This document shows, one piece after another, positions 30,526 to 63,360 of a DNA stretch of 64,000 nt. The notes beneath the pieces were generated by a model. That model was not told where the DNA came from. It saw only the letters and a program-made list of their open reading frames with translations, and did not search any database. Numbering within the stretch: the stretch's first letter is position 1; the number at the start of each line of letters is the position of its first letter. The translations under genes and the position numbers were made by a program. The DNA lies in contig CAXTYC010000003.1 in NCBI GenBank assembly GCA_964248365.1, forward strand, positions 1-64,000. The letters are read 5' to 3'. The stretch comes from an uncultured Chroococcidiopsis sp. Lineage in GTDB: Bacteria > Cyanobacteriota > Cyanobacteriia > Cyanobacteriales > Chroococcidiopsidaceae.

Positions 30526-31542
30526 GTGGGCATTGTCGTAGAGAACGTATCCAAGCAATTTGGCAGTTTCAGAGCCGTCGAAGAAGTGAGTCTAAAAATC
30601 GAAAGCGGCTCACTGGTAGCTTTGTTGGGACCATCTGGTTCTGGTAAGTCCACCCTACTGCGGCTAATTGCTGGGTTGGAGATGCCAGATAGCGGCAAAA
30701 TTTGGCTAACTGGTAAAGATGCTACTAATAAAAGTGTGCAAGATCGTAATATTGGCTTTGTGTTTCAGCACTATGCTTTATTCAAGCACTTAACTGTACG
30801 GAAAAATATTGCTTTTGGTTTGGAAATTCATAAAGTACCAAAGGCGAAAGTCAAGGCACGGGTAGAAGAGTTGCTGGATTTAGTGCAACTTTCGGGACTA
30901 GGCGATCGCTATCCCTCCCAACTTTCTGGCGGACAACGGCAACGGGTAGCCTTAGCCAGGGCGCTTGCCGTTCAACCCCAGGTTTTGCTACTCGATGAAC
31001 CCTTCGGCGCATTAGATGCCAAAGTTAGGAAAGACTTACGGGCATGGTTACGCCGCCTCCATGATGAAGTTCATGTTACCACAGTATTTGTCACCCACGA
31101 CCAAGAAGAAGCGATGGAAGTTGCCGATGAAATCGTCGTGATGAATAAAGGCAAAGTCGAACAGGTAGGAACCCCAGCCGAAATTTATGACCATCCCGCT
31201 AGTGCCTTTGTGATGAGCTTCATTGGTCCAGTGAATGTTTTACCCAGCAGTTCTAAGATATTCCAGAGCAATGGGTTTGATAGTGCTAACCCAGAAATGT
31301 TTTTGCGTCCTCAAGATGTGATTGTAGAAACTTCTCCTAACGGTACGACTGTACCAGCTAGAGTAAGTCGGCTAATTCATCTAGGATGGGAAATTCAAGC
31401 GGAATTAAGCCTAGACGATGGACAAGTAGTGACAGCGCATCTAACACGCGATCGCTTTGACCAGTTAAAACTCGAACCAGAGCAAAAGGTTTATGTCAAA
31501 CCCAAGGATGCTAAATCTTTTCCGCTATACTATTCGATTTAG
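30526..31542 (+). CDS. cysA: Sulfate/thiosulfate ABC transporter ATP-binding protein
   Basis: [50 protein letters not shown]-like C-terminus. Confidence 0.92.
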
Positions 31543-46131: not shown

Positions 46132-47313
46132 ATGTATTTAAAAAGTCTACATCTGAGGCATTTTCGTAACTACCAAGATCAGCAAGTTGATTTTATTGCG
46201 CCAAAAACAATTTTGGTAGGTAATAATGCTCAAGGAAAATCGAATTTGTTGGAAGCGGTGGAATTGCTGGCGACGTTGCGATCGCACCGAATGGCGCGCG
46301 ATCGTGATCTAGTGCGGGAAGGAGAAGCCGCAGGACAAATTACTGCCACTCTAGAGCGTCAAACTGGCATTGTTGACCTCGCTCTTACATTACGCCGTCA
46401 AGGTCGTCGTAGTGTTGCGCTCAATAGCGAGTACTTGCGGCGACATCTGGATTTTTTGGGTGTTTTGAACGCTGTACAGTTTTCCAGCCTAGATTTAGAA
46501 CTGGTGCGAGGGGGACCAGAACAACGCCGCCACTGGATAGATACGCTGTTAATTCAACTTGAACCTGTTTACGCCTATATATTACAGCAATATAACCAGG
46601 TGTTGCGACAGCGAAATGCTTTGCTCAGAAGGAGTCAGGAGTCAGGTAGGGGCGGGTTTAACCAGGATATTAGTGGGACGACAAGCAGGCTAACAAACCC
46701 GCCCATACAGGAAGAGTTGGAGGTGTGGAATGCTCAACTTGCAGCTGTGGGTTCAAGGGTGATTAGAAGGCGATCGCGTGCTATAGAAAGATTAGCTCCA
46801 ATTGCCACTGCTTGGCATACCAGTATTAGTGATAGTACAGAAATATTGCAAGTAAAATACGCGCCGAATGTTCCTTTCACCCAAAATCATCCCGAACAAG
46901 TGCAACAGGCTTTTTTAGAGAAAATTGCCACAAGAGCGATCGCGGAACAGCATCAAGGTACAACTCTGGTAGGTCCCCATCGAGATGAAATTGAGCTAAC
47001 GATCAACCAAACTCCAGCACGTCAATATGGTTCGCAAGGTCAACAGCGTACCTTAGTCTTAGCACTCAAGCTAGCAGAACTCAAACTAATCGAAGAAGTC
47101 ATCGGAGAACCACCGCTTTTACTTCTAGATGACGTACTAGCTGAACTCGACCTTAACCGCCAAAACCAACTTTTAGAAGCAATTCAAGACCGCTTTCAAA
47201 CCCTGATTACCACCACTCATTTAGGTTCATTCGACTCTCAGTGGCTCAAAGCATCGCAAATTCTAACAGTTGAGGCGGGACACCTATCACCTCATTCCAT
47301 GCCCAGATTGTAG
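46132..47313 (+). CDS. recF: DNA replication/repair protein RecF
   Basis: [24 protein letters not shown] and [11 protein letters not shown] motifs. Confidence 0.97.
46646..46708. mobile_element. 63-bp palindromic element inserted in frame in recF
   Basis: Ends GTAGGGGCGGGTTT and AAACCCGCCCATAC (13 of 14 complementary). Confidence 0.7.
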
Positions 47314-47359
47314 CCACCCATGCCCACCACATAGAACCCACCACATAGAAATAATAAAA

Positions 47360-47623
47360 AATCATGCGCAGAAGAGACGTAATATATTACGTCTCTTCTA
47401 TGTTGGTTGCCCCTTCGTAAATTCCCTAGGACTAGATCGATCAACTCCAGCGGTCACGGCTAGGGTCGCTCATGTACTTCACGGAAGTCCCCCTGAAATA
47501 GCGACCCTAGCCGTAAGACCGCACAGTCAAGATCGGGCTAGTGATTGCATGATCGAGCTAAACGCAAGGACAGCGATCCACCGTCCAAATTGCAAGGCTG
47601 TTTCCCAACATTAGCGCGTGATT
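47360..47623 (-). ncRNA. Retron-like msr/msd non-coding RNA
   Basis: Terminal inverted repeat; G-U-containing stem at 47568-47586; long hairpin 47431-47542 with a perfect 15-bp core; starts 2 nt after the SWIM stop codon. Confidence 0.7.
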
Positions 47624-47625
47624 CG

Positions 47626-49263
47626 TCAGTATTGACGAGCGTGTTGCATTCGCAACGCGAGAATGTGTTCGCAAGGACCCTTATACAGCTTATTCTGTAT
47701 GTGCCAATTGCAACTACATTCTGCGTTTATTATACGCTCATCTGCATCAACTGTCAAGGCTGGGTTGTAGGTTTTTTCCCGCTCTTTGACACTGCCTTGC
47801 AGGGTAAACGCGCCTGTTGCATCACTGGTTACAGATTTTACCTCTACATTGTTGTAAACCAAGAAACGAGTTGCTTTTTCTTCTCGTTCATTGGCAAAAC
47901 GCAGCCTTTCCATTGGTAAAGGTTTGCGGCTGAGTTCTCGCACTCGATAAACTTGCTTATTCAAGTCATAAATGGCACGTCCGGCTTGGGTATATGCCCC
48001 TAAAGCACCAAGAATTACAACTCGGTTTAAACCTAGCCTTTGTGCCAGACTATCAGGGCTTTCTACCCAATTCTTCTTCAGTTGGTCAAAAATGTGCTGC
48101 TGTGTCCATTTATCTACATCAGCACGAGGAGCCATTAAGTCAAAGTTACCAGATTGTGACCAATCGTTTGCCGTCCAGCCTGATAAACCGAGGGTAAAGG
48201 ACATATCGCCTAAGTCGGCGACATAAAAAGAAGGCATACCCGTACCCAGCAGGTGAACAGTAAACTTTTTGGCGATGGGGATGAGACGTTCTAAAATATT
48301 TATACGACGACGACCCCAAACGCGAATTTCTTGTTCTTGTGTACCAGTGTAAGGCGATCGCGGACACACTACTTCAATTCCCCAAGGATCGAATATCACC
48401 CGCACTGGTTGCCCTGGTGTAAGATGATAGCGCATACTGCGTGGTCCTTTCTTTTCTTTGTGACGACGCAAGACAAAGCAGATATTGTGAATATCCATCG
48501 GATGCAAATCAAACCGCGTCGCTGGTAAAGACATGGCGGAACTAACTTGCAAAAAGCCTCTTACCCAACTATCAGGTAAATCGATTTTGACTTCTTTAAA
48601 ATCCTCTTCATTGGTAGTTTGAACTTCAAAGCCTGATGGATCAATTTCAAATTTGGTAGTCTTATAACTGCGGATTTTTTGAAACTCATCATACAGGGCG
48701 GCTGAGTAGTCGATATTGGTAGTACCGCAGGCAAATTCGTTGATATTTTTAAATACTTCGTAACTAGCACTCAGTCGCCCATAACTTGATTCATCTTGAC
48801 TGAAACATTCAAAAAAGACTTCATCAGGATGAACTGTAATTACTGGATCTAGGACAAACCAAGCATCTCGATCTTTTTGATAAAGATAATCAAAGTAGCG
48901 GCGTTGTGCTTTGTAGAAAGGTTCTCTGCGTTGGTAACTATTTTGATTTAGATGATTGAGTTCTGATTGTAATGATTTGATGCGATCGCTTACTTCTTTG
49001 CGTTGGGCTGCTACTAATTGCCAGTCTATTTCTTGTTGCTTAGCTGCCCATTCTTTGTACGCTGTTTTGTCTTTTGGTTTGAATCGTAAGTCTGAGACTA
49101 CGACGTTATGTAAGGCGCTAATTGCTTCACGAAATGCTACGTTTTGGCGTAATTCTCCGATAAAATATGTTGGTGGGCGCTTGGTGTCTGGGGAGAATGT
49201 CATCTGGGTATTAGCGCCGTCGTTAATTGAGGTATTTCCTTTGTAGGTGTAGTTGAATTCCAT
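47626..49263 (-). CDS. SWIM zinc-finger protein (type XIII retron-associated family)
   Basis: C-terminal CSC...GPCEH SWIM motif; LDPVITVHPD, FECFSQDESSY, GTTNID and WVRGFLQV blocks. Confidence 0.85.
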   Translation of the reverse strand: MEFNYTYKGNTSINDGANTQMTFSPDTKRPPTYFIGELRQNVAFREAISALHNVVVSDLRFKPKDKTAYKEWAAKQQEIDWQLVAAQRKEVSDRIKSLQSELNHLNQNSYQRREPFYKAQRRYFDYLYQKDRDAWFVLDPVITVHPDEVFFECFSQDESSYGRLSASYEVFKNINEFACGTTNIDYSAALYDEFQKIRSYKTTKFEIDPSGFEVQTTNEEDFKEVKIDLPDSWVRGFLQVSSAMSLPATRFDLHPMDIHNICFVLRRHKEKKGPRSMRYHLTPGQPVRVIFDPWGIEVVCPRSPYTGTQEQEIRVWGRRRINILERLIPIAKKFTVHLLGTGMPSFYVADLGDMSFTLGLSGWTANDWSQSGNFDLMAPRADVDKWTQQHIFDQLKKNWVESPDSLAQRLGLNRVVILGALGAYTQAGRAIYDLNKQVYRVRELSRKPLPMERLRFANEREEKATRFLVYNNVEVKSVTSDATGAFTLQGSVKEREKTYNPALTVDADERIINAECSCNWHIQNKLYKGPCEHILALRMQHARQY

Positions 49264-49363
49264 ATTTTAGATGGGATTGGTTGGGGGGAAAGATTAATTT
49301 TGACGAACCGCAGAGGCACAGAGAACGCAGAGGTAAGAATAGAGAGGAGATAGGAAGTGTATT

Positions 49364-52300
49364 TTAGTTTCTGAGTTGGGCTACTGGTTTTAGGTGGAGG
49401 GGTAGGGATATTTGAGGATAGGTTTTGCGAATTTTTAGCATGATCTGTATGGCTGCTGCTTTGTCTCCAATTGCTATAGTTGCAGATTGTCTGGTGAGAA
49501 TTTCTGCAACGAAGGAGGCGGCTTGCTCGTTTTTTTGGGCTTCGGTTTCCAGAAAGGCAAGAATTCTCTGTTTGGCGACTCTGCCGCGATTGACGCTAGA
49601 CAATACGCTGATGAAATAAGGTGTTAGTTGTTGTAGGCGTTCGGGGTTATCTATGGCGTAGTTTTCTAGATAGTTAGTAGCAAACATCTGCATATCGGCT
49701 GAGGGATGTTCGCTGAATTTGAGTAGGTATTCTTGTCCATAATTTTGTTGAAAGTTGTGAATGACTAAATCGCGCCCAAAAGAGCGGACATCTTCACGTA
49801 TACTGTCACAAATGCTAACTATTACTTCTGGTGTCCAATCTTGGGCTGTGAAGTCGTTACTAAAAATTCTGGTTGCAAATTCGCGGGAGTCATCCCATTT
49901 TGACTCTAGTAATCGCACGGCAGATAACATTTGTTCTGAGTTTGTGCGAATATGATTTAAATTTCGCACAAACATTTGTCGTGCTGCTTCACGTATGGCT
50001 ATAATTTCGTGATTTGCAAGTTTGACTATTTCGCTGATTTGGAATTCGGGTAGGAAGCGCTCGCTATTTTCTTGCAATACTAAACCACCCAATTCTTGGG
50101 CAGAGGAAGATTTAGCATGAAGTAGCAACATGGCTTTGTCTTTACTTATATTAGACATCCAATTCGGTATGTCTTCTCGTAGCAATTGCACTACATATTT
50201 ATGAATGCCTTCGTGTCTTTCTGGTGCGATTAATACATCGATTAAATCAGAGGCGATCGCACTGGCAAAGTCTGTATTATTATTTGCTAAGCGTCGAATA
50301 ACTGGACGAATGGCATGACGAATATCAGTGACGGCGTTAATTGCCATTGCTGTTATTAGTGTGCGATCGTTTAACAATTTCTCATCAGGTAATTGTCCAA
50401 AAATTCTCACACCAATACCACGTACTGATTCATAAGGAGAAGCAAGCAGTGATTCAATTAAATTAGGTGGTAAATCAACTGCCCTCGTTTCGTGGTTAAG
50501 TAAAATACGAGCGCCTAATTCTTGAATTTTTGGCATTGGGTGTCGCAGTAAGTCTAAGATGACACCAAATCCTAAGTTACGCAGTTGGGGTGTAAAGCTA
50601 ATTAGCAAAGTCTCGCCAATTTCTTTCGCCATATAGGTTTGAGTGGGTTCAAGTGCTAATACAGCAGCGATTATGCGTCCAATTAGTACCCTGGCTGTGG
50701 CATCATCTAAAATTGAGGAACTTAACAACCTACGGGCAAAAGCACGAGTATCAGCTTGTTTACTGGTGACTAAGCTGGCGATAAACTCGCTGGATGTAAA
50801 AAAGTATTCGCGTTGCGCTTCAATCCAATGGTAAGCTTGTGTACGAGCGTTTTGTGATATGCAATTGGCAGCAGCTAAAACTAATGTTTGATTAGGTTGG
50901 GCTGGGTTGTAGCGAGTAACTGCCAGCGAAAAGGCAAATTCGACTGTAACTTCGTAGGGTTTATTTAGTAGTAGGATGATGGTGTTGATGTCGAGGCGAT
51001 CGCAAAATTCTGTACTTGTCCGTATCGCTTTAGCGGCAAAATGATGTACAGGGCGACAGTCACTTTCTAATAATAGTTGTAATAGTGCTTCTGGGTGTTG
51101 TTGCCAAAGTTCAGGAAACGCTTCTTCTCTTACATTCGGTTCTGGATATCCTGGTTTGTAAGTTTCTTTGCAACGCCATGCTTTGGGATGGGAAATATAG
51201 CGCGGGCTGTTTTCGTACAGAATATGATTAAATGTTAAGTATGGCGCATAATTATCCCAAGATATGGTAATGCGATCATAGGAACGGCGTTGCTGATTCC
51301 ATCTTGTAAAGCTTGTTTGTCTAACTGGTTGAGCATCCCGATCAGAATACTGAAGCAAAACGCCTACAGCCATTTTTACATATTCAGGATCGCCCTCTTC
51401 GCCCAACTGCTTAAGAGTACGCCACACCCGCCGCCGCAAATATTCACGAGTTTGTTTACTGTAAGCTAGTCTTGCATTAGGGCGCTGCATTTCTGCTTCA
51501 AACTCGCTGATTCCGAGAGTTTCCCATTGGCGTGTTGTAGAGTTGTATCTATTATTTTGTGTTCTTAAGTACTCACCGCCTGGGAGATAGACGTAATACC
51601 CATCACTGTCATAATTTCCCGATTCTTTCTCAAACGTATAAGCAAGAATGCCAAAAATTTCTGCATCGTGGCGATATTCAGCGATTTTGAAAATGTGGCG
51701 AATTTGCTTGAAATAGTTAGGTTTAAGTGGCGCTTCGCATAAAATATCTAGTAGTGCTGGACGTACATATTCGTTATCGATTTGATAGATAGTATCGAGA
51801 ACGGCAAAACGTTTGTAATCACTGCTGTCTAAATAAGTTTTTAGTGCTGCGGCGAATGCGTCTGCTGATCCATTCTGAGCTAATTTTGATAGAGATGAGG
51901 GTAGGCGATTTATGCATTCTGAACGCGCTGCTTTAGCATTTTGATTTGATAATTTTAGTAATGCTTCAAAAGCAATCCGACGAACAAATGCAGGGTGAGA
52001 AGCATTAGACAGGCGTTCGAGGCTAGCGATCGCATATTCATCCCCACACCAACCCAACGCCCAAGCAATACAATAATCTCTCAGGGGTTCGCCAGTGCCA
52101 ATTAGCTCAATTAATAACGGTGTGGCTTCCTTAATTTTCAGTTCTCCAGCCCGCCAAATCACTCGATCTAAAGACCATTTTCTTTCGTCTCGATTCGCAA
52201 GCCGATTTAGAATAGCCTGATGGCGTGGATCACTACTGGTGAGTGTTACATCTGTGCGAGTTGTGACTAGTGCGGGAGTATTACTAATTGGTTGATTGGT

Positions 52301-52537
52301 AGTATCTTGGTAGCCTTTTTTAACTTTTTCTCTAACTAGCTGCTCGAAAACTCGCTCTGCTTCGGCTAGTGGTACAGGCTGGGTTGTCTTCGTTCCTTCT
52401 TTGAGGTTAGTACCGCGTCGTCCATAGCGAAAGTTTACCACATAGCGGTTTTGCCCCGTCTGGCATAAATCAACTTCGTAGACTTTATCTGAACTTCCTT
52501 CTTGATAGCACAGCGTAGTCCGTTTGATTAGTTGCAT
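49364..52537 (-). CDS. WGR-domain protein with HEAT/ARM repeats
   Basis: N-terminal EGSSDKVYEV...FRYGRRG WGR domain, then ~900 aa of helical repeats; GGAG SD before the ATG at 52537. Confidence 0.85.
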   Translation of the reverse strand: MQLIKRTTLCYQEGSSDKVYEVDLCQTGQNRYVVNFRYGRRGTNLKEGTKTTQPVPLAEAERVFEQLVREKVKKGYQDTTNQPISNTPALVTTRTDVTLTSSDPRHQAILNRLANRDERKWSLDRVIWRAGELKIKEATPLLIELIGTGEPLRDYCIAWALGWCGDEYAIASLERLSNASHPAFVRRIAFEALLKLSNQNAKAARSECINRLPSSLSKLAQNGSADAFAAALKTYLDSSDYKRFAVLDTIYQIDNEYVRPALLDILCEAPLKPNYFKQIRHIFKIAEYRHDAEIFGILAYTFEKESGNYDSDGYYVYLPGGEYLRTQNNRYNSTTRQWETLGISEFEAEMQRPNARLAYSKQTREYLRRRVWRTLKQLGEEGDPEYVKMAVGVLLQYSDRDAQPVRQTSFTRWNQQRRSYDRITISWDNYAPYLTFNHILYENSPRYISHPKAWRCKETYKPGYPEPNVREEAFPELWQQHPEALLQLLLESDCRPVHHFAAKAIRTSTEFCDRLDINTIILLLNKPYEVTVEFAFSLAVTRYNPAQPNQTLVLAAANCISQNARTQAYHWIEAQREYFFTSSEFIASLVTSKQADTRAFARRLLSSSILDDATARVLIGRIIAAVLALEPTQTYMAKEIGETLLISFTPQLRNLGFGVILDLLRHPMPKIQELGARILLNHETRAVDLPPNLIESLLASPYESVRGIGVRIFGQLPDEKLLNDRTLITAMAINAVTDIRHAIRPVIRRLANNNTDFASAIASDLIDVLIAPERHEGIHKYVVQLLREDIPNWMSNISKDKAMLLLHAKSSSAQELGGLVLQENSERFLPEFQISEIVKLANHEIIAIREAARQMFVRNLNHIRTNSEQMLSAVRLLESKWDDSREFATRIFSNDFTAQDWTPEVIVSICDSIREDVRSFGRDLVIHNFQQNYGQEYLLKFSEHPSADMQMFATNYLENYAIDNPERLQQLTPYFISVLSSVNRGRVAKQRILAFLETEAQKNEQAASFVAEILTRQSATIAIGDKAAAIQIMLKIRKTYPQISLPLHLKPVAQLRN

Positions 52538-52608
52538 CCGGTTGTCTCCACTATTGGTATTTAATAGTATATGTGTACTAATGTGCAAAGGGTAGGGGTG
52601 GGTATAAC

Positions 52609-52774
52609 TTAGATCTTGCATCTTTCCCATAGTCCGCCTGCTAATTAATTAGCAGGCTCACAGCCAAAGTCTTCTTAAGAAGACTACATTGGGTTGCAGT
52701 CCATTGAAATGGACTTGAGCTATTAGCCCAAAAAAGAAGTAAGGGGCGGTGATTGAAACTGGCGCAATATGTAA
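52609..52774. mobile_element. MITE/REP-like element with three internal palindromes
   Basis: Palindromes at 52636-52657 (22 bp, perfect), 52668-52685 (18 bp, perfect) and 52698-52715; imperfect terminal inverted repeats (10 of 14). Confidence 0.5.
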
Positions 52775-52902
52775 ATATAATCAAATCCAGTTATAGCAAA
52801 TGATGTATAACCTCGTAACTAGGCTCACTTCATACTAGGCTTGAGCTTAGTTACGAGCGTTACCCAACTTACGCCTGGTAACGAGTAACCCGTCACTACA
52901 GG

Positions 52903-53559
52903 CTAAGGATTGATTTGACTCAAAATCACTTTCAAGCGATCGTAATCGTCTTTAAGTAGTACGCTCAGAGTACGTCCTGCTTTAACTAACCACTCTCTTT
53001 CTGCTTTGCGTAGCTGATAGACTTGTCGAATTGCAGCTGCTATTAAGGCTTCTATGGGCGCACCTTTCACTTCTAACAAAGTTCTTAAAAAATCTAGCTG
53101 TTCGCTGAAGAAAATAATATCTTCTGGTTGGCAACGGTAAACAGCCTGATGAATTTGAGGCGGACGAGGTGGAAGATATTGATAAATCTGGCGCCCCGCG
53201 CGTTTTGAAGCTTTTTCCGGCTCAAATCCGACAATAGCAGCTCGAAACTCGGTTTTGAGCATAGCGAAGATCTGGGGTTGTTGCTCTCGCAAGTCTTGTA
53301 AAGACAACCCTAAAGCCCTGGCTCGATGAATTGAGTCGATGGGCATGGTGGTAGCATAGTATACTACGGCGTATATTTGATTACCTGACTCTTCATCCCT
53401 GGACTTTACCCAGCTACCAAATGGGGGCATAACTGGGAAACTCAATTCATCTGGTTCTAAGCATTGAGCTAAAAATTCAGTCGTGGCGGTTTCGATCACC
53501 TCAGCTAGGTAGTCTGGGTGGCGATCGCCTGTGGCAAATTGGGGTAGGGGAAGGCGCAT
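52903..53559 (-). CDS. HAS-barrel domain protein
   Basis: AEVIETATTEFLAQC, PPFGSWV and YQYLPPRPPQIH motifs. Confidence 0.75.
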   Translation of the reverse strand: MRLPLPQFATGDRHPDYLAEVIETATTEFLAQCLEPDELSFPVMPPFGSWVKSRDEESGNQIYAVVYYATTMPIDSIHRARALGLSLQDLREQQPQIFAMLKTEFRAAIVGFEPEKASKRAGRQIYQYLPPRPPQIHQAVYRCQPEDIIFFSEQLDFLRTLLEVKGAPIEALIAAAIRQVYQLRKAEREWLVKAGRTLSVLLKDDYDRLKVILSQINP

Positions 53560-62497: not shown

Positions 62498-62731
62498 ATG
62501 CCCTTACTCCTAGTTGCCTTACTGCTGATTGGCTTGCTAATTATTGCTTCAAAATTTAGTCGAAAACGCAAGAACATAAAAAAACTAACTTGCATAGCAG
62601 TTTTAGGTAGACCTTGGCGTGGTAAGTTGCTTAGAGATTTAGCAGCAAAAGCTAGAAGTGAGTATCCAGGTCAGTCAGAACAATGGTACTGGCGCAAGGC
62701 ACAAAGTGATTTAAAGCGTTACCGAGACTGA
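62498..62731 (+). CDS. Small membrane-anchored basic protein
   Basis: N-terminal TM helix; YPGQSEQWYWRKA motif. Confidence 0.55.
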   Translation: MPLLLVALLLIGLLIIASKFSRKRKNIKKLTCIAVLGRPWRGKLLRDLAAKARSEYPGQSEQWYWRKAQSDLKRYRD

Positions 62732-62772: not shown

Positions 62773-63360
62773 TTACCGCTTTTGAAAGCGATACGGGTCT
62801 AAAATAGCTCCCCACAAAGCTTTACCCGTAGTGGGATCAATTCCCTTGTCGTAGCTCAAAAATTCCGCTTCGGTTGCCTCAAAACCAAGCGAAACTTGTA
62901 TTGTATTTTCACCATAGTTAAAACAGCATTTTTCCCCTGGTGGCGGGGCGGCAGTAAAGTGGTAGCTGTTAGCATTCGGTTGTTGCACTTTCACCAGCAG
63001 CATACAGCCAGGTAGCAGTTCAAATTGTTCTGGGGTGAATGACTTGAGTAAAGTTGGATTTGCCCCAGCACCGCGTACAGCCGCCGGATCTTTGGGCATA
63101 TAGTACTGTACTTGTATGGATGTATCCGCGTCAGAGCGTTCCTGTAACCGCATTAGCCGAGGGCGATAAGGTTGATCGAGTTTGACTATATTAGCTTGTT
63201 CGGCAAATAGAGTAATGCTGTCTGAGGCAAATAGAGGGACTGGTTTTTGCCATAGGTGGAGGTGGACGTACCAAGCAGGATCGGCGATCGCTTGTTCTCG
63301 ATTATCAAATTCACCTGCCATATAATTAGCAAGGGCAACCAGTTGAGGCGAGAAATTCAT
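62773..63360 (-). CDS. cpcT: CpcT/CpeT phycobiliprotein chromophore lyase
   Basis: AGEFDNREQA, EQA...PYRPR, LPGC and SYDKGID...LWG motifs. Confidence 0.85.
   Translation of the reverse strand: MNFSPQLVALANYMAGEFDNREQAIADPAWYVHLHLWQKPVPLFASDSITLFAEQANIVKLDQPYRPRLMRLQERSDADTSIQVQYYMPKDPAAVRGAGANPTLLKSFTPEQFELLPGCMLLVKVQQPNANSYHFTAAPPPGEKCCFNYGENTIQVSLGFEATEAEFLSYDKGIDPTTGKALWGAILDPYRFQKR

Follow-up and report, generated by a model that had tools for sequence, protein, structure and literature searches.

A type XIII retron in a Chroococcidiopsis genome with its RNA and its reverse transcriptase at separate loci, a layout that recurs in cyanobacteria

Retron type XIII corresponds to clade 10 of the retron reverse transcriptases (RTs) and includes Retron-Mxa1 (Mx162), Mxa2 (Mx65), Sau1 (Sa163) and Nex2 (Ne144) (Mestre et al. 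2020, PMC7736814). In that account the type is a contiguous msr-msd-RT cassette, whose partners were sought within 30 kb of the RT, and three retron surveys have examined RT neighbourhoods of 30 kb, 10 kb or 500 bp. Clade 10 RTs are among the best producers in the census of bioRxiv 2024.01.25.577267. The system described here belongs to an uncultured Chroococcidiopsis sp. and lies in part in the first 64,000 nucleotides of contig CAXTYC010000003.1 (assembly GCA_964248365.1); this whole stretch, which I hereafter call the window, is part of draft contig C3 of a 5.58-Mb genome of 102 contigs (G000; G, C and L numbers are handles for genomes, contigs and loci). Like type XIII as described in PMC7736814, the system has an RT of this clade with an N-terminal extension, a cluster-114 SWIM protein, a cluster-216 WGR-HEAT protein, an msr-msd non-coding RNA (ncRNA) with a1/a2 arms and a long msd stem, and vertical inheritance. 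Unlike it, the cassette is in two pieces separated by at least 84 kb, the RNA has a predicted promoter of its own in the SWIM gene, and LexA boxes are present. Four intact parts, each single-copy, are found at two loci, so that by its components the system is type XIII while by its layout it falls outside the contiguous-cassette definition. Very probably, it is a type XIII retron with a trans-acting architecture, the operon having come apart.

Other described elements resemble it in some respects. The RT-less msr/msd repeats of Retron-Nex1 (Ne160) in Nannocystis (PMC6868368) likewise have no RT within a kilobase, and a distant RT was suggested for them; these repeats are duplicated, whereas here there is one RNA and one RT with intact partners, in a layout recurring across the phylum. 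For 'orphan' retrons such as the Ec107 branch, effectors in trans were raised as a possibility (PMC7736814), but their cassette is whole and the effectors are missing, while here the cassette is split and every part is found. The cyanobacterial diversity-generating retroelements (PMC8867640, PMC8632793) also use a domesticated RT that acts on distant loci; they have another class of RT, and it is their targets that are remote, template and RT being together. The open-licence PMC and bioRxiv literature yielded no split type XIII retron, no retron acting in trans, no control by LexA and no ncRNA promoter inside a gene; papers behind subscription and supplementary files lie outside that scope, and Tables S1 and S3 of Mestre et al. 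may list these RTs. The split layout is invisible to survey pipelines because they look for retrons as contiguous RT-ncRNA cassettes.

The part of the system that lies in the window is on the minus strand. The WGR-HEAT gene (49364..52537) encodes 1057 residues from an ATG common to its homologs and matches the PADLOC model WGR_XIII end to end (E 0). The SWIM gene (47626..49263; 545 residues) lies downstream, which is the type XIII order, and matches SWIM_XIII end to end (E 7e-248). Both open reading frames (ORFs) are uninterrupted, in agreement with an earlier reading of the letters of this DNA alone, hereafter the sequence-only reading, and its assignment to type XIII is borne out by RT, SWIM, WGR and RNA alike. 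It had further reported a structured RNA 2 nt past SWIM, with the recF stop about 45 nt beyond; the msr-msd ncRNA indeed occupies 47356..47624 (minus strand), starts 2 nt after the SWIM stop and is followed, about 45 nt past its closing stem, by the stop of recF. The absence of an RT near the module also holds for C3, on which neither a profile search of the contigs for RVT_1 nor tblastn with the cognate RT found a match or a remnant.

The fold of the ncRNA has a z score of -6.3 (0/100 shuffles). In an alignment of 90 distinct homologs that was fitted to the structure, 96.4% of cells are paired, against 35-44% in slid controls, and 44 of the 59 pairs have changes on both sides; an unfitted alignment gives double changes in 27/48 pairs. 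The outer a1/a2 stems, the CCUU/AAGG stem, the msr hairpin and the branched msd stem are backed by this covariation. In the window (minus strand) the a1 arms are at 47619-47614 and 47609-47605, the msr stem-loop at 47593-47564, the long branched msd stem at 47542-47431 and the a2 arms at 47406-47402 and about 47369-47362, followed by a 6-U tract; a U-rich tract stands 3' of a2 in 79/88 loci. The invariant CCUU (47597-47594) pairs with AAGG (47415-47412), and directly after it comes the predicted priming (branch) guanosine, G47593, which is invariant in 53/53 homologs, is G in 18/18 split and 37/37 linked loci, and agrees in position with the retron priming rule (PMC6868368). This G was preferred because the alternative, an Mx162-like site at CAGC (47600-47597), has an unconserved G; that site was rejected. 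The predicted product, an RT-DNA or multicopy single-stranded DNA (msDNA) of about 130 nt, would correspond to 47416..47545 on the plus strand, its 5' end being deduced from the priming stem and its 3' end being a guess; as single-stranded DNA, 47415-47550 folds with a z score of -6.9 (0/200 shuffles). A perfect palindrome of 30 nt (47370..47399), which belongs to a repeat family of this genome (23 matches to the arm pattern), is inserted within the a2 arm; it is missing from most homologs and leaves the priming stem untouched. The RNA has the a1/a2 stem, priming G, msr hairpin and long msd stem of type XIII and is homologous to the RNA that lies between SWIM and RT in contiguous type XIII loci; a search of Rfam gave no match. 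A genome scan with a covariance model derived from 53 homologs of the RNA finds a single ncRNA in this genome, that of the window. Elsewhere two copies may occur per locus or genome, often one past SWIM and the other before RT or WGR (L041, L064, L069, L074, L076, L079, L086, L088, L089, L094, L097, L101, L105, G027, G039).

The RT is encoded outside the window, on the plus strand of contig C24 (G000:C24:41805-43208, equivalent to L106:5806-7209). Its 467 residues are intact and match PADLOC RT_XIII with 665.8 bits (E 9.7e-201, residues 1-465), the next model scoring 332.5 bits; the motifs NAxxH, LPQG, YADD and VTG (residues 201, 304, 340 and 390) are preserved, and the protein has the extended N-terminus that distinguishes the clade-10 RTs of type XIII. 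Among the 16 RVT_1 matches in the genome it is the single intact RT matched to the clade. The other RTs were discarded as partners, two that were scanned being group II intron-like and the rest being intron-like pieces by sequence or below threshold; group II intron-like RTs, many of them fragmentary, lie on C8, C7, C68, C37, C15 and C18. Judged from its flanks, C24 belongs to the same organism as the window, because they match the congener G005 (74-84%) as the window's do (81-86%). Both loci are mid-contig, and 84 kb is the minimum separation between them. The covariance model detects no ncRNA beside this RT, as at all but one of the 30 RT loci searched, and the classical layout, a single transcriptional cassette that joins ncRNA and RT, is not found. 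The want of an RT, which the sequence-only reading had seen, is therefore a property of the locus and not of the system, since a genome-wide search for a clade-matched RT finds one on C24. It is highly probable, on comparative grounds, that this RT acts in trans and makes msDNA.

Recurrence of the split layout was assessed in 401 evenly drawn cyanobacterial genomes. SWIM is present in 13 of them and a full-length RT in the same 13, the two genes being linked within 3 kb in 7 and unlinked in 6; six other genomes carry only a shorter, different RT. Among the best 80 of 355 SWIM loci, the fetched flank has an RT match at 46 and none at 34, and for these 34 a full-length RT occurs elsewhere in 32 genomes. 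Further handles gave a remote RT in 8/8, which brings the total to 40/42 (one genome accounts for two of these 42 handles). The recurrence of RT-less WGR and SWIM copies that keep the RNA, which the sequence-only reading had proposed to look for, is thus real at the level of the locus and disappears at that of the genome, given the RT elsewhere in 32/34. In the complete chromosome of Chlorogloeopsis fritschii PCC 6912 the parts are 1.56 Mb apart, and in Calothrix parasitica NIES-267 1.19 Mb; gaps within one sequence reach 0.64 Mb in G012 and at least 2.7 Mb in G028. Dispersal can be three-way (G272, Moorena bouillonii PNG) or four-way (Lusitaniella coriacea LEGE 07167, ESFC-1). The SWIM-RT gaps form a graded series, from 0.3 kb through 1-5 kb occupied by unrelated genes and 10-30 kb up to megabases, and the neighbours of dispersed parts differ from genome to genome. 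In most splits the RNA sits with SWIM rather than with the RT. Two SWIM modules go with two RTs in 3 genomes, and in the congeners SWIM, WGR, ncRNA and full-length RT are jointly missing in 6/6. As a comparison, in 201 genomes from the phylum of a Myxococcota genome, the RT lies within 3 kb for 27/32 SWIM genes; of the rest, 2/32 have it on another contig and 3/32 give no match at threshold.

Several observations on related systems accompany the survey. In genomes of Dulcicalothrix and Calothrix there are two distinct type XIII systems, each having a separate RT (L049/L095, L050/L100, L094/L103). An RNase III gene lies co-oriented directly upstream of the RT at 16/83 loci, linked and split and in several clades (e.g. 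L027:12397-13080, L031:11470-12183, L060:11130-11843, L077:11435-12112, L030:13269-13955), the present genome not being one of them; the enzyme might act in the processing of the retron RNA at its a1/a2 stem. A related RT that lacks the N-terminal extension, with a core 55-67% identical, is found in genomes without SWIM and WGR (G030, at L171:4279-5982 and TPR-fused; G321, G091, G118, G369, G087; and the congeners G001, G002, G004 and G006); five of these have a weak match to the RNA model within about 1 kb, and shorter RT and weak RNA match are possibly a separate retron subtype. Finally, genomes of 1.7-1.8 Mb carry a divergent operon of a large ORF, SWIM and RT (L170:2901-8756 in G186; G261:C1:1065751-1068769), in which 44-65 nt separate the SWIM match from the RT match; the RNA model gives no hit in these genomes.

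Whether the separated parts have descended together was examined with 83 SWIM-RT pairs in quick trees with Shimodaira-Hasegawa approximate likelihood-ratio (SH-aLRT) support, L053 being dropped for its stop and loci with partial genes omitted. The window SWIM and the remote RT group with one and the same pair of sister loci (SH-aLRT 97 and 98), both of which are also split, with a synonymous divergence (dS) of 1.1 between the window SWIM and that of one of them; next to this clade stand contiguous operons, e.g. that of Coleofasciculus sp. H7-2 (87% and 81% identity). Both trees follow host families (L091, on a contig labelled Actinomycetota, nests in cyanobacteria in both and is probably mis-binned). 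The concatenated tree, from which 12 doubtful short-contig splits were omitted, has 10 changes between linked and split, 8 of them forced by strong branches, a count that cannot separate gain from loss. With 6 non-cyanobacterial rows omitted, SWIM and RT distances correlate with r 0.81 for 26 firm splits and r 0.90 for 39 linked pairs. The ratio of nonsynonymous to synonymous divergence (dN/dS) is similarly low in both classes, with no relaxation of selection in the split one: it is 0.06-0.12 in split and 0.05-0.20 in linked pairs for SWIM, and 0.08-0.23 and 0.07-0.18, respectively, for the RT; in the window it is 0.07-0.09 for SWIM and, against 3 relatives, 0.14-0.16 for WGR, with 0.105 for recF as a control. 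RNA pairs are retained to the same degree, 57.1/59 in 18 split and 56.2/59 in 37 linked loci.

A likely reason why the RNA remains with SWIM is found within the SWIM gene. A consensus sigma-70 promoter (47729..47757, minus strand; 12/12 with a 17-nt spacer) lies within the last 45 codons, about 105 nt before the ncRNA, and is predicted to be the ncRNA's own promoter. In a comparison of 76 cyanobacterial rows, with a cut-off of 10/12 and with the RNA counted as adjacent when it starts less than 100 nt from SWIM, such a site is present in 55/57 loci with adjacent RNA against 4/19 in which the RNA has moved. The synonymous codons that carry it are nearly fixed, TTG in 54/56, CGT in 53/57 and ATA in 49/50, as opposed to 0.15-0.22 elsewhere in the gene. 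Several moved RNAs, not all, have a new promoter-like site 11-26 nt upstream. The SWIM codons that spell the promoter would thus hold the RNA next to SWIM. The remote RT has a TATAAT element of its own, with no full sigma-70 promoter found before it, and the element is also present in the contiguous relatives L058 and L059, so that independent transcription of RNA and RT probably predates the split.

LexA boxes are found at both loci. With the cyanobacterial consensus RGTACNNNDGTWCB (PMC3091678), a perfect match at C24:41752-41765 precedes the RT and abuts its -10 element, and a match with one mismatch (52566..52579, minus strand) lies 28 nt before the WGR start codon. In this genome 5/2765 ORFs of at least 200 residues have a perfect box within 100 nt upstream, lexA among them, while one-mismatch matches have a background of 2.0-2.5% of ORFs. 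The ssb gene also has a perfect box, and the recA box is the 14-mer given for the damage-responsive recA promoter in PMC13416735; the genome has lexA and boxes at lexA, recA and ssb, as a cyanobacterial LexA regulon would. Among 72 genomes with both upstream regions, both RT and WGR are boxed in 6, RT alone in 5, WGR alone in 1 and neither in 60 (Fisher 2e-5, a value inflated by kinship, there being about three clades). The distance from the RT box to the RT start is fixed at 31-51 nt, and two genomes with stand-alone SWIM genes have a box at those genes as well. The boxes are, by this comparison, a clade trait, since most carriers have none, and in the clade of the window LexA rather probably controls both the RT and the WGR-SWIM operon, so that a regulon would stand in for the original operon. 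Other genes of this genome with perfect boxes are those at G000:C17:43053, at C25:18072 and on C15 (a plus-strand gene starting MYKTAAS), and the window has two more perfect matches, at 31342-31355 and 62677-62690, the latter directly before an ORF at 62773.

Structure modelling suggests a clamp-like fold for the SWIM protein. In the model (predicted local distance difference test, pLDDT, 73.2), residues 31-364 form a PCNA/sliding-clamp-like double domain with a long helical insertion (PCNA Z 20.9, root mean square deviation 2.8, 233 residues aligned), residues 382-448 a winged helix (Z about 10) and the C-terminus a CxC-x12-CxH SWIM finger, which together with the winged helix is characteristic of type XIII; the invariant acidic residues (139-224) fall in the PCNA-aligned part. 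The predicted fold is thus PCNA-like, as in PCNA, 9-1-1 and beta clamps (Z 15-21), from which the protein differs by an identity of 7-14%, the long helical insertion, the added winged helix and zinc finger, and the lack of a loader gene nearby. For the same core PMC7736814 suggested a DEDE transposase-like origin; among the 50 fold matches listed here none is RNase H-like. The WGR-HEAT protein (pLDDT 85.9; Pfam WGR and HEAT_2) has, besides a WGR domain (residues 13-81), a long alpha-solenoid interrupted by two small beta insertions, and its fold matches are generic HEAT-repeat or other solenoids only (template modelling score about 0.2). WGR domains bind nucleic acid, as in PARP1. No catalytic or toxin domain was recognised in either protein with PADLOC, Pfam, NCBIfam and fold searches, the NCBIfam scan of both giving no match. 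A predicted complex of SWIM with RT residues 1-440 scored 0.31 against a mark of 0.32, with controls at 0.00.

The flanks of the module are outside the system. They are recF (46132..47313, plus strand, convergent) and, upstream, a HAS-barrel gene (52903..53559, minus strand); in the congener G005 the two adjoin with no module between, and a contig from run X7, linking 47292 to 52932, shows the same empty site. A 5066-nt contig from the independent run X2, about 95% identical, spans 46735-51241 unbroken in the order recF, RNA, SWIM, WGR. Genes around both loci are housekeeping (recF, rodA-like, infB; znuA beside the RT) and do not form a defence island. Upstream of the WGR gene are three inverted repeats (52636-52685 and 52812-52857), including a 16-nt pair that may terminate the HAS-barrel transcript, and a sigma-70-like site (11/12; 52753-52781, plus strand) directed away from WGR.

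In the mechanism that I propose, transcription of the ncRNA would begin at the promoter embedded in SWIM and end at the U tract, while the RT, made from its own promoter, would prime at G47593 and copy about 130 nt of msd, from 47416, into branched msDNA. With RNA and RT already transcribed independently, rearrangements were free to part them repeatedly. Supply of the RNA would be constitutive, and DNA stress would induce the proteins; RT-msDNA, the clamp-fold DNA-binding protein and the WGR-HEAT scaffold would then form a complex watching abnormal DNA such as ends or stalled forks, whose response would be help in repair or growth arrest with no catalytic toxin involved. That the function is such a DNA-stress-induced surveillance is my best guess, offered tentatively and at a little under even chances. 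The main rival keeps the same trans architecture and makes the system an ordinary anti-phage one acting by abortive infection, RT-msDNA holding SWIM and WGR inactive until a phage protein disturbs it and LexA boxes only tuning expression in some clades. It is a possible account, if a doubtful one: tested retrons mostly act by abortive infection (bioRxiv 2020.06.21.156273), and patchy presence (13/401) with joint loss of unlinked parts in congeners would suit a costly or toxic set, but neither protein has a recognised toxin-like catalytic domain, the flanks are housekeeping genes, the trees follow host families, in keeping with the vertical inheritance of type XIII noted by Mestre et al. (PMC7736814), and the literature searched held no defence test of type XIII. 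The two functions need not exclude each other. A stronger version of the DNA-damage account, in which several cyanobacterial lineages have domesticated the retron into the LexA regulon, with constitutive RNA and with damage-induced RT and WGR scaffold that, together with msDNA, load or gate the PCNA-like clamp at damaged DNA, is speculative and on balance unlikely.

As for the layout itself, the sequence-only reading had left the choice between a split retron served by an RT elsewhere, an RT-independent system derived from a retron and a recent deletion of the RT; the remote RT, its co-occurrence with SWIM and the congruent trees support the split retron. Were the RNA itself the partner of WGR and SWIM and the remote RT a bystander, the RNA's staying with SWIM in most splits and two drafts without an RT match would be expected; the embedded promoter accounts for the former, however, and the RT is kept in 13/13 and 32/34 genomes, is under purifying selection and has no other template in this genome, while the priming stem and its G are invariant in split loci, so that RT independence is very improbable. 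No more credit can be given to an assembly broken at recF or a recent split with dying parts, which is already largely refuted: the genome is indeed a 102-contig draft, a repeat is inserted in the a2 arm and congeners have lost the system, but both parts are mid-contig, the X2 contig bridges the recF junction, dN/dS is 0.07-0.16, both sister loci are split with a SWIM dS of 1.1 to one, and complete or single-contig chromosomes show the split. That the dispersal is neutral, genome shuffling and intergenic insertions scattering operons whose genes have their own promoters, with LexA boxes a local side trait without bearing on the function of the family, is compatible with the trans-acting architecture and, as a full account, rather unlikely. 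The graded gaps, the different neighbours per genome, the close RT of 27/32 Myxococcota-phylum SWIM genes and the minority status of the boxes all suit it. Two features do not: in separate clades, individual genomes carry boxes at two or three parts that are not linked, and the box lies at a fixed distance from the RT start.

Several points weigh against the trans-acting, LexA-linked reading preferred here. The drafts G445 and G462 have SWIM, WGR and RNA with no RT match even by profile; conversely, in G034 (500 contigs) SWIM and WGR are missing while RT and RNA are present, and, seen at the level of the locus, L073 shows only RT fragments and L053 an RT with a stop. Congruent trees indicate long joint retention and not physical contact, because joint vertical descent gives the same pattern. 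The association of promoter and adjacency, reduced to independent pairs, goes the same way in about 3/7 and the opposite way in 0 (p 0.25, not significant). LexA boxes are a minority (RT 11/81, SWIM 3/82, WGR 7/72), the RT is boxed in 8/36 split genomes, boxed genomes are kin in about three clades, and LexA does not act as an SOS repressor in all cyanobacteria (PMC13416735). A shared clamp fold by itself implies neither a ring nor a function, and msDNA, transcript, start site and LexA binding are all predictions from sequence.

The dispersed layout, found in about half of the cyanobacterial carriers sampled (6/13), implies that an 'RT-less' module, or a type XIII RT standing alone, may be one half of a functioning system. 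As a regulatory signal that decides which parts of an operon stay joined, the promoter overlapping the SWIM codons would be a clean case. LexA boxes at unlinked parts and the predicted clamp fold point to DNA damage, and the 40-year-old question of the function of the Mx162 family becomes testable in culturable strains. If the domestication into the LexA regulon envisaged above were true, the first-discovered retron family would have a role in host DNA maintenance, not in phage defence.

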